From Candidatus Hermodarchaeota archaeon (GTDB taxonomy: Archaea; Asgardarchaeota; Heimdallarchaeia; Hodarchaeales; Hodarchaeaceae): a DNA stretch of 32,000 bases. Below are positions 3,422-28,350 of this stretch, one piece after another. The position numbers were made by a program, and so were the translations under genes. The stretch lies in contig JBHLKY010000017.1 of the NCBI GenBank assembly GCA_048886185.1, positions 38,559 through 70,558 of the forward strand. Direction: 5' to 3'. Each line of letters starts with the position of its first letter. The first letter of the stretch is position 1. The notes below the pieces were generated by a model that did not search any database, was not told the DNA's origin, and worked only from the letters and a program-made list of their open reading frames with translations.

Positions 3422-3653
3422 TCTAGATATTTCATATAACTTAAGATGATTACAGCAGTTATGTTTAACACAAAGGGGAAGAAATAGAGAGAGAACAAGA
3501 TTACAGCCCTTTGAATCTTGATTGCGAATAGTCTATCTAGAAAGGCAATTAAATAGCATTGAGGTGTCATTTAGACATAATTGAGTAGTCTTTCACTCAA
3601 ATTCTCAGCCTTACTAATGAATTCATCTGAATCAAGTGAAAGGAGAATATCGC

Positions 3654-4628
3654 TTGAATAACCCGGATTATTTGACACGAATTCATTTGAAAGGTGCCGT
3701 ACCCATAATCTTTGAGAATCTTTTCAAACATTGCCCTACTAGAGAACTTTCTGGGGATTTTTTTGCATCTATTGGTTTCAATAAACCAGGAAAAGAGTTA
3801 AACATTCAAGGTAAAAAAGTTCAAGTACTTCTAATTAATTGTCAAAAATGTAATTGCCAAGATGATTATTCTGATTCAACAGTAGTATTTGTGAAACTAA
3901 ATGACAGAGGGAGCTTCAAGAAACTCAATAGCTATTTTAATTTAACTCAAAAGGTCAATGACAATTATAGACATCAAAGAACTATTATTGGATTGTTAGA
4001 GGAACCAGTGCAAGTTTCTCAAGCTGAAAGAGATGAATTAAGCACTAATAGAAACATAGAATATCATGAAATATCAGTCAATGAAATTGAAGACCTTGAG
4101 AAAATTCTTATTGATATAATAGAAAAGAGTCTTCTTCTTCCACAGTATTTATTAAAAATAGCTTGCTTAGGTTCGGAAAAAAAGACTTCAATCATTCACA
4201 ATTATGTCAAAGATAATTTAACTGCTGATTATTTACCAACATTAGGAGTTGATATTACTAATAAAAGATTAAATGTCCATGGAGTAAGAGTTGATCTAAT
4301 CATTGTTGATACAGCAGAGCAAAAAGACTTTGGAAAATTAAGACCAAATTACTATCGAGGGGCCAATGGTGGTCTGATTTTCTTTGATTTTGAAAGAGAA
4401 AAAAGTTTTAACGCTATCAGGGGGTGGATCAATGAATTTTCTACTTATATCAAAGATCCTATTCCCATCGCTTTAATTGGTATTGAGGGAGAAAGACAAA
4501 GAGTTCCTGTAAATGAAGCCAAGGCCTTAGCACAAGAATATAACATGGAATTTTATAAAATACAAAAGAACAAACCTAAATTAAATGAAATAGCCAAAAA
4601 AATAACTGAAATAATTCTGACCAATTAA
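3654..4628 (+). CDS. Tandem Rab/Ras-like small-GTPase-fold protein, both domains degenerate (pseudo-GTPase)
   Basis: Domain 2 (4146-4625): LKIACLG..KTSII, YLPTLGVD, LIIVDTAEQ, FGKLRPNYYRGANG, FFD...SF..I..W. Domain 1 (~3669-4133) follows the same secondary-structure pattern. Start set at TTG 3654 (AAGGAGA SD at 3640-3646); ORF track uses GTG 3636. Confidence 0.85.
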   Translation: MNNPDYLTRIHLKGAVPIIFENLFKHCPTRELSGDFFASIGFNKPGKELNIQGKKVQVLLINCQKCNCQDDYSDSTVVFVKLNDRGSFKKLNSYFNLTQKVNDNYRHQRTIIGLLEEPVQVSQAERDELSTNRNIEYHEISVNEIEDLEKILIDIIEKSLLLPQYLLKIACLGSEKKTSIIHNYVKDNLTADYLPTLGVDITNKRLNVHGVRVDLIIVDTAEQKDFGKLRPNYYRGANGGLIFFDFEREKSFNAIRGWINEFSTYIKDPIPIALIGIEGERQRVPVNEAKALAQEYNMEFYKIQKNKPKLNEIAKKITEIILTN

Positions 4629-27074: not shown

Positions 27075-27180
27075 GAATGGTATGATCAATCCTAATATTT
27101 TAATTAATTAACTTCTTAAAAGAAATAAAAGGGTAGTTTAGATATACTCAAGATTAAAATGTGTTTGTTAGGAATTGAAC

Positions 27181-28350
27181 ATGGCACCAACTATAATTAG
27201 TTACTTTGGCGTTGGTGTCTTTTTAATCGATTTAATTGTAAGTGGTTTAGTATTCTATAAATTAAGTAGAAGGTGGAGAGAAACCAGAATCACAGTGGTT
27301 TCTTTACTTGCAGTTTTTTACCTTTTATTCATCATTTTCACAATAATAGAATTATTTTTTTTTCTATTAAACTTTAATGATACCGTTGGCTTTTATACTC
27401 AAGAAGGCAATATCTTTGTCTGGTTATTACCTTTCTTTGGAGGAATTTCTGCTGGATTTTTCATGTTATTCATTGATTACTTTGAAAATGAGAGAATAAA
27501 CCCATTTCATGGTTTCATTTATGGAATATTTCTCGGAGCCTTTCTTCTGAATGTGATGCATCAAATAATTCTCCCAGAACTTTTCCCGTTAAATATAGAA
27601 GCCAACACTCTTATTTTATTAATCCTAAATTTCCTTTTTTCGACAAATTTTCCTGTATCATACTTTGTAATTTATGTAATCTTAGTGACATTAATATCTC
27701 TCCGAAGAATTAAAAATAATATTGATGATAAAGCACAAAAGAGACAAGTAACGTTGATGCAGTGGACGATAATTTTATATTACTTTGTCACATTAATCGT
27801 AGTTGCTAGTGCCTATCAGTTGGAAAATATTATAGATCCTGTTACAGTGGTTTTTCTCAAACACATTGCACCTCATATTAATGTTATAATAGGAAGTCTC
27901 CTGATTTATGAGGCGTACGTACACGCACCTGTGGGATTTCTACAATTTCAGCAGATAGAGAAGCTTTTGGTAATAAACCGGTCAGGGCTGTTATTATTCT
28001 CATATGATTTTGCTTTGCCTAAAGAGCAAGAATATACCAGTGAAAGAGATTTATTACTTTCAGGAGGCGTATACGCAATTCTAAATCTGTTTACAGAAAT
28101 GGTTCATGCTAAAAACATTAGGATGATTCATTTTCAAGATAAAAAAATCATGCTTTCCCAAAAAGAGAATTTCATTATCCTATTGTTAGTAGATCGAATA
28201 TCGAGCTTTCTTTGGAGTGCATTAGATTCTTTTGGGAATATGTTTAACCTTAAATACTCTTTAGACAACCAAGAGAAATATGCAATTATTACAAAAAACG
28301 TTTTTAATGATGCAGAACAGTTAATGAAGATTGCTTTTGGGCGAAAATGA
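27181..28350 (+). CDS. 7TM membrane protein fused to a C-terminal longin-like domain
   Basis: Seven TM segments, then IEKLLVINRSGLLLFSYDF...LLLSGGVYAILNLFTEM...IRMIHFQDKKIMLSQKENFIILLLVD...L..F...F..KY, the beta-beta-alpha-beta-beta-beta-alpha-alpha longin pattern (~27952-28347). ATG 27181 fits the AGGA SD better than TTG 27175. Confidence 0.78.
   Translation: MAPTIISYFGVGVFLIDLIVSGLVFYKLSRRWRETRITVVSLLAVFYLLFIIFTIIELFFFLLNFNDTVGFYTQEGNIFVWLLPFFGGISAGFFMLFIDYFENERINPFHGFIYGIFLGAFLLNVMHQIILPELFPLNIEANTLILLILNFLFSTNFPVSYFVIYVILVTLISLRRIKNNIDDKAQKRQVTLMQWTIILYYFVTLIVVASAYQLENIIDPVTVVFLKHIAPHINVIIGSLLIYEAYVHAPVGFLQFQQIEKLLVINRSGLLLFSYDFALPKEQEYTSERDLLLSGGVYAILNLFTEMVHAKNIRMIHFQDKKIMLSQKENFIILLLVDRISSFLWSALDSFGNMFNLKYSLDNQEKYAIITKNVFNDAEQLMKIAFGRK

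Follow-up and report, generated by a model that had tools for sequence, protein, structure and literature searches.

In eukaryotes the longin fold is used for docking small GTPases, but longin domains also work independently of GTPases, as they do in SNAREs and in AP complexes (sigma and mu cores). The lysosomal SLC38A9-Ragulator-Rag system physically links a polytopic membrane protein to a platform of the roadblock/longin type, on which small GTPases are handled. Sensor modules of the HisKA_7TM type normally drive histidine kinases.

Asgard archaea possess dozens of eukaryote-like small GTPases together with longin and roadblock proteins, and operons seldom reveal how these pair (PMC10933270). 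Fusions of longin and roadblock domains to GTPases have been reported in this group (Tran et al., 2024, PMC10933270; Liu et al., 2020, 10.1101/2020.10.19.343400). They involve the same superfamily and the same group of organisms as the protein described here; in those fusions the partner domain is a GTPase, whereas here it is a putative membrane sensor. Longin domains fused to two-component domains have also been described, with no mention of 7TM in the accessible part of that text (Liu et al., 2020, 10.1101/2020.10.19.343400), and the word "transmembrane" has 0 occurrences in PMC10933270. Both domains of the present protein are of known kinds, and Asgard longins and the longin-GTPase and longin-two-component fusions are already published. 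For the pairing of a 7TM domain with a longin domain, no description was found in the literature covered, subscription journals lying outside that coverage.

The gene for this pairing is located in a 32,000-nucleotide stretch of DNA from Candidatus Hermodarchaeota archaeon (contig JBHLKY010000017.1, positions 38,559 to 70,558; hereafter the window). An earlier sequence-only reading had described its product as a receptor-like 7TM protein with a longin-like tail, wired directly to a small-GTPase regulatory module in a manner analogous to GPCR-type signalling.

Gene, family and distribution

The 7TM-longin gene (P0001) occupies window positions 27181..28350 on the + strand (389 codons plus stop), as delimited from the list of open reading frames, the translation and the starts of orthologs. 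It is a single intact frame with alternative starts at 27175 (TTG) and 27181 (ATG) and a stop ending at 28350. The N-terminus M-A/T-P-x-I-I-S is common to all orthologs (alignment A1), and because every ortholog opens with M-A/T-P the start is placed at ATG 27181, giving a product of 389 aa. AGGA is found 9 nt upstream of this ATG. The upstream intergenic region (27075..27180, +; 106 bp) is AT-rich as read from the sequence and likely contains the gene's own promoter. Across this spacer lies an aldo-keto reductase (AKR) gene, and a gene for an LLM-type oxidoreductase starts 19 bp past the stop; the neighbours, which include a CDF transporter, are metabolic and transport genes.

A chance reading frame is ruled out by the homologs. 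A word-based search returned 44 of near length with 27-86% identity, an exhaustive search gave 82 cluster representatives (50% identity; mostly 350-410 aa), and the count across Asgard genomes that the sequence-only reading had proposed yielded a match (E<=1e-5) in 243 of 400, nearly all free of internal stops. Clear orthologs are present in 20 of the 21 genomes of the same genus. Beyond the genus, matches cover mostly the last helices and the tail, in open frames of ~360-410 aa. Conservation within the family is highest in the linker and longin domain, and the membrane part diverges faster. Gene order around family members is conserved only within the genus.

The homologs that carry a name are from MAGs of Hodarchaeales and Heimdallarchaeota, and going by the named matches, the architecture is restricted to Asgard archaea. 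In the ESM Atlas, three clusters of the same shape (134, 79, and 70 members) are assigned to Promethearchaeota. Shorter family forms consist of one or two helices and the longin tail. In one metagenomic protein (P0105, 381 aa) a soluble longin at aa 10-148 is fused to a region named by its source as SAM-dependent methyltransferase. Neither Pfam nor NCBIfam has a model for the 7TM-longin family, and an NCBIfam search with the protein itself returned no family.

The seven-helix membrane domain

The full protein was modelled with AF2 from a 32-sequence alignment (pLDDT 78.8, pTM 0.73). In the model, the membrane domain (aa 5-247; 27193..27921, +) is composed of TM1 (5-35), TM2 (38-63), TM3 (78-103), TM4 (108-130), TM5 (143-180), TM6 (184-213), and TM7 (220-247), with a kink in TM5 at the conserved STNFP. 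A hydropathy count on 56 family members gave seven TM segments in 37. Among these 37, the TM1-2, TM3-4, and TM5-6 loops together carry a mean of 9.9 K/R, and the N-terminus with the remaining three loops a mean of 2.7. By the positive-inside rule, this imbalance places the N-terminus outside and the longin domain in the cytoplasm. An extracellular tail was considered and rejected on the same loop statistics, which put the C-terminus inside. The 7TM-longin product is an integral membrane protein of seven helices with its N-terminus outside and a cytoplasmic C-terminal longin domain.

The most basic loop, both in this protein and family-wide (mean 4.9 K/R), is the cytoplasmic TM5-TM6 loop RRIKNNIDDKAQKRQ (aa 175-189; 27703..27747, +), delimited from the family alignment and K/R counts; it has 6 K/R and a Q-x-x-Q motif found throughout the family. 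Helix number, topology and basic loop are all as the sequence-only reading had them, and it was also right that no kinase, cyclase or other output domain is present, none being found in the protein by Pfam or NCBIfam. Polar residues are conserved within the helices (E57, N124, N156, and H232). The extracellular loops are short (~8-21 aa) and an ectodomain is absent; whatever is sensed would thus be a small ligand or some property of the membrane.

A lead to the relatives of this domain came from language-model look-alikes (0.83-0.86), in whose clusters 10-36% of members are HisKA_7TM; these scores fall under the tool's mark for more than a lead and served only to choose the profile test. For this test, the profile of 56 N-terminal domains of the family was set against that of 15 true HisKA_7TM domains collected in Asgard genomes, including one in this genome. 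Alignment by hhalign gave 87.4% probability and a score of 44.4; its 166 collinear columns stretch from TM1 as far as the basic TM5-TM6 loop, where the family Q-K-K-Q is aligned with the K-Q of the HisKA_7TM loop. Reversed profiles gave at most 15.5, 20 block permutations at most 31.4, and the control families Asgard HlyIII and Asgard bacteriorhodopsin 14.3 and 11.5, respectively. The profile-profile probability for HisKA_7TM (87-91%) is specific with respect to these two control 7TM families. The same alignment was obtained from two non-overlapping subsets of the family (56% and 90%); the 12 closest orthologs by themselves give no HisKA_7TM profile signal, and none of the 56 N-terminal domains matches Pfam HisKA_7TM (PF16927, cut-off 28.6 bits) at E<=0.1. 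From the profile comparison, the membrane part is probably distantly related to the HisKA_7TM sensor module of prokaryotes.

True HisKA_7TM sensors occur in 1-3 copies per genome in the same genus. That of this genome, at C7:79237-79911 (-), scores 178.7 bits and lies within a frame of 614 aa.

The longin tail and the small-GTPase question

The membrane domain is joined to the tail by a short and almost invariant juxtamembrane linker (aa 248-258; 27922..27954, +; alignments A1 and A2), which contains G252, the invariant L254, and Q255. Its motif reads FLQFQ here and FLQPQ in the wider family, and FLQ-x-Q is retained in the forms with one or two helices and in the soluble forms. The cytoplasmic longin domain follows at aa 259-385 (27955..28335, +) in the order b1 b2 a1 b3 b4 b5 a2 a3. 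In the full-length model, the strands are at 259-266, 271-276, 315-318, 321-327, and 331-337, and the helices at 288-309, 342-359, and 372-385. The tail folded alone from an 82-sequence alignment (A2) has pLDDT 86.7 and the order b-b-a-b-b-b-a-a (strands E10-17, E22-27, E66-68, E73-78, and E82-88; helices H31-59, H93-117, and H123-137, in domain-model numbering). Both models have a five-stranded sheet between helices in longin order, and the order of secondary-structure elements is the stated distinction of longin from roadblock (PMC10933270).

The whole model gave no Foldseek match at E<=1e-3, and the tail had to be split off before such matches appeared. With the tail, there are 38 at E<1e-3, mostly longins and some roadblock light chains, AP sigma subunits being at the top; of the domain-by-domain Foldseek comparison proposed earlier, the half concerning the tail returned longin, and the whole model returned nothing at that threshold. 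The tail superposes on solved longin domains across the entire domain, the nearest structures being the Rab-binding first longin domains of Fuzzy and Mon1-Ccz1, and TRAPP Trs23. A roadblock/LC7 identity was rejected, neither model having a helix before b1 and roadblock chains aligning over 87-106 residues only (model ~6-113), with the C-terminal helices left out. Profilin and PAS identities were rejected by fold. On the predicted models, the assignment to the longin fold is firm, which bears out the ~130-aa longin-like domain of the sequence-only reading.

Assignment to any single named longin family is not firm by profile. Of the longin-type Pfam models (Sybindin, Longin, Fuz_longin_1, and Clat_adaptor_s), none scores the protein above its curated cut-off; Sybindin matches it at 18.3 bits, below its cut-off of 25. 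Among the 82 family members, matches at E up to 0.1 are to Sybindin (11), Fuz_longin_1 (10), Robl_LC7 (8), and Intu_longin_1 (5), the best longin-type match being Fuz_longin_1 at E 6.3e-6; against PDB, the profile of the longin family finds yeast Trs23 at E 0.02.

The longin profile matches 26 ORFs in this 4.84-Mb genome. These paralogs rest on profile matches, pairwise BLAST of the tail against them being too weak. Three MFS_1 transporters of ~550 aa (C19:76467-78113 and C19:78296-79972, in tandem, and C7:63660-65312; Pfam and profile) end in the same longin family at the cytoplasmic C-terminus (profile E 5e-17 to 5e-24), making them candidate fusions of transporter and longin. Its presence there makes the tail a general cytoplasmic add-on for membrane proteins, and the idea of the longin as a receptor-specific output did not hold. 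A single ORF at C17:28818-29765, 8.8 kb before the window start, encodes an Arf-type GTPase (Pfam Arf 6.5e-37 at aa 5-170) followed by longin (aa 186-286, E 6.6e-10). Two tandem TPR proteins of ~745 aa (C34:1418-3652 and C34:3796-6036) have longin near the C-terminus. At C8:117330-119981 (+) and C8:120052-122667 (-), two convergent longin genes have 3' ends ~70 bp apart; one product carries a HerA/DUF87 ATPase domain, and Pfam finds nothing in the other, which has 871 aa. The genome also encodes a probable second multi-TM longin form (369 aa) and free-standing longin proteins of 145-156 aa. The ESM Atlas likewise has a TPR-plus-longin cluster.

About 69 loci of the Ras/Arf type are found in this genome, and the nearest is no closer than 22.7 kb to the 7TM-longin gene. 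A Rab-like gene of the window matches Pfam Ras at 4182-4610 (+) with 3.5e-28, inside a tandem Rab-like ORF at 3636-4628 (~330-335 aa). Seven family neighbourhoods, drawn from different lineages, contain no GTPase gene within 5-8 kb. Genome-wide, the distances from the 26 longin ORFs to the ~69 Ras/Arf loci are not significantly shorter than those from random places (P 0.2-0.33). In Asgard archaea GTPases and their regulators rarely share operons (PMC10933270), and the missing GTPase neighbours are therefore weak evidence. The sole trafficking-type neighbour in the seven neighbourhoods is a Robl_LC7 gene beside a distant 7TM-longin member (P0119), to which it is convergent (L077:6312-6695, -). 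Just one close pairing of a longin gene with a GTPase gene was seen in the genome: a Rab/Ras-like GTPase (C6:106167-106661, -; Pfam Ras 5.2e-48) with a 567-aa longin protein 332 bp upstream (C6:106993-108696, -).

The proposed wiring to a small-GTPase module thus found no backing in gene neighbourhoods or in proximity; the longin-Rab structures and the Arf fusion are indirect hints. Three further observations count against a GTPase client: AP sigma subunits head the Foldseek list, the tail is also found on MFS, TPR, and HerA-like proteins, and no residues were assignable to catalysis or to GTPase contact. A link between the 7TM-longin protein and a small GTPase is possible.

Proposed role and comparison with known systems

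The reading tentatively preferred is a HisKA_7TM-like sensor that would signal through the linker to a longin platform at which a small GTPase would most likely dock. The bundle would sense a small ligand or a membrane property, the longin domain standing where the kinase would be. A change in the helix bundle would travel via TM7 and the FLQ-x-Q linker into the longin domain, which would serve as a docking platform fixed at the membrane. Its likeliest client would be one of the ~69 Ras/Arf-type GTPases, recruited to or regulated at the membrane, and the tail may pair with a second longin copy or with a free-standing longin protein. A complete receptor-to-GTPase relay in one polypeptide, where sensing would switch the longin domain and thereby recruit an Arf/Rag- or Rab-like GTPase or change its nucleotide state, is quite unlikely.

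The tail may also be a general assembly module, given its fusions to MFS, TPR, and HerA-like proteins. In its strict form, that of a GTPase-independent membrane scaffold pairing with itself or with longin, roadblock or V4R (Bet3-like) partners and having no nucleotide switch, this explanation is somewhat doubtful. It would account for 26 longin ORFs of many architectures, the free-standing ones included, and it fits the AP sigma subunits, which are structural cores, heading the Foldseek list, the Robl_LC7 neighbour of one family member, and an Asgard cluster in which the same fold is fused to V4R. However, the structures that match best over the full length are longins that bind GTPases, one ORF of this genome joins the same longin family to an Arf-type GTPase, and a scaffold role is compatible with GTPase docking. 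A two-copy complex prediction of the tail (A2) scored 0.02 against a mark of 0.42, which counts neither way for pairing. The membrane part could alternatively be a transporter or channel with the longin domain as its cytoplasmic regulator, information then passing from cytosol to membrane as in regulated permeases and transceptors. This appears unlikely: three MFS_1 proteins of this genome carry the same longin at their cytoplasmic C-terminus, conserved polar residues lie inside the helices, an ectodomain is absent and the gene lies amid metabolic and transport genes, but there are zero matches to transporter families in Pfam or NCBIfam, the sole remote profile signal leads to a sensor module, and the bundle superposes on receptors and rhodopsins.

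This superposition is about equally good on every GPCR class and on microbial rhodopsins, and the 7TM part therefore looks like a generic fold. That it is a true homolog of eukaryotic GPCRs, from a family ancestral to GPCR signalling, is very improbable, although a preprint of 2026 labels Asgard-eukaryote structural clusters as GPCR (10.64898/2026.10.28.762692). The match list is flat, with a designed soluble GPCR-like fold tying for first place and microbial rhodopsins at 13-13.9, and helical bundles attain such Z through arrangement alone, as the tool warns. The Foldseek TM-scores of the whole model are 0.3-0.4 with rmsd 7-9 A. No Pfam 7tm family matches the protein at E up to 10 or any of the 56 members at E up to 0.1, and the specific profile signal falls to HisKA_7TM. 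Against PDB sequences, phmmer returned just chance matches to photosystem II D2 helices (E 0.08 or weaker).

The 7TM-longin family provides a defined bait, one 140-residue tail against the ~69 GTPase loci of one genome. Should a GTPase partner be found, the coupling of membrane to GTPase via longin platforms would predate eukaryotes and would have been wired first to prokaryote-type sensor modules. If none is found, the family would still mark the longin domain as a cytoplasmic add-on in general use on Asgard membrane proteins (7TM, MFS, and few-TM). A true relay would offer an archaeal way for GTPases without lipid anchors to reach membranes, and a functional forerunner of eukaryotic receptor-coupled GTPase signalling.

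Compared with known systems, the HisKA_7TM kinases share with the 7TM-longin protein seven helices and a cytoplasmic output domain after TM7; they carry HisKA/HATPase, whereas the 7TM-longin protein carries longin instead. Eukaryotic GPCRs are alike in having 7TM in N-out/C-in orientation, in the basic character of their third cytoplasmic loop and in a partner-binding end on the cytoplasmic side, but there is no sequence relation and the fold match appears unspecific. Coupling differs as well, since GPCRs act via loops that bind a heterotrimeric G protein and the 7TM-longin protein would act via a covalently attached platform. The GPCR-type parallel drawn by the sequence-only reading survives as an analogy; the membrane part looks more like kin of the HisKA_7TM module than of GPCRs.

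The nearest longin systems are the tri-longin Rab exchange factors (Mon1-Ccz1, Fuzzy-Inturned/CPLANE, and BLOC-3) and the TRAPP subunits Trs23/TRAPPC4 and Bet5/TRAPPC1. These proteins are soluble and either have three tandem longins or are subunits of multi-protein complexes that act as heterodimers, whereas the 7TM-longin protein has a single longin domain on a 7TM part, the remainder of its AF2 model being membrane helices. In the longin SNAREs (VAMP7, Sec22b, and Ykt6), an N-terminal longin is followed by the SNARE helix and one C-terminal anchor; in the 7TM-longin protein the order is reversed, there are seven helices, and there is no SNARE motif. The comparison with SLC38A9-Ragulator-Rag concerns how the parts would work. 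There, separate proteins are held together by LAMTOR1, whereas the 7TM-longin protein is one polypeptide, and the MFS-longin paralogs of this genome fit the logic of that system.
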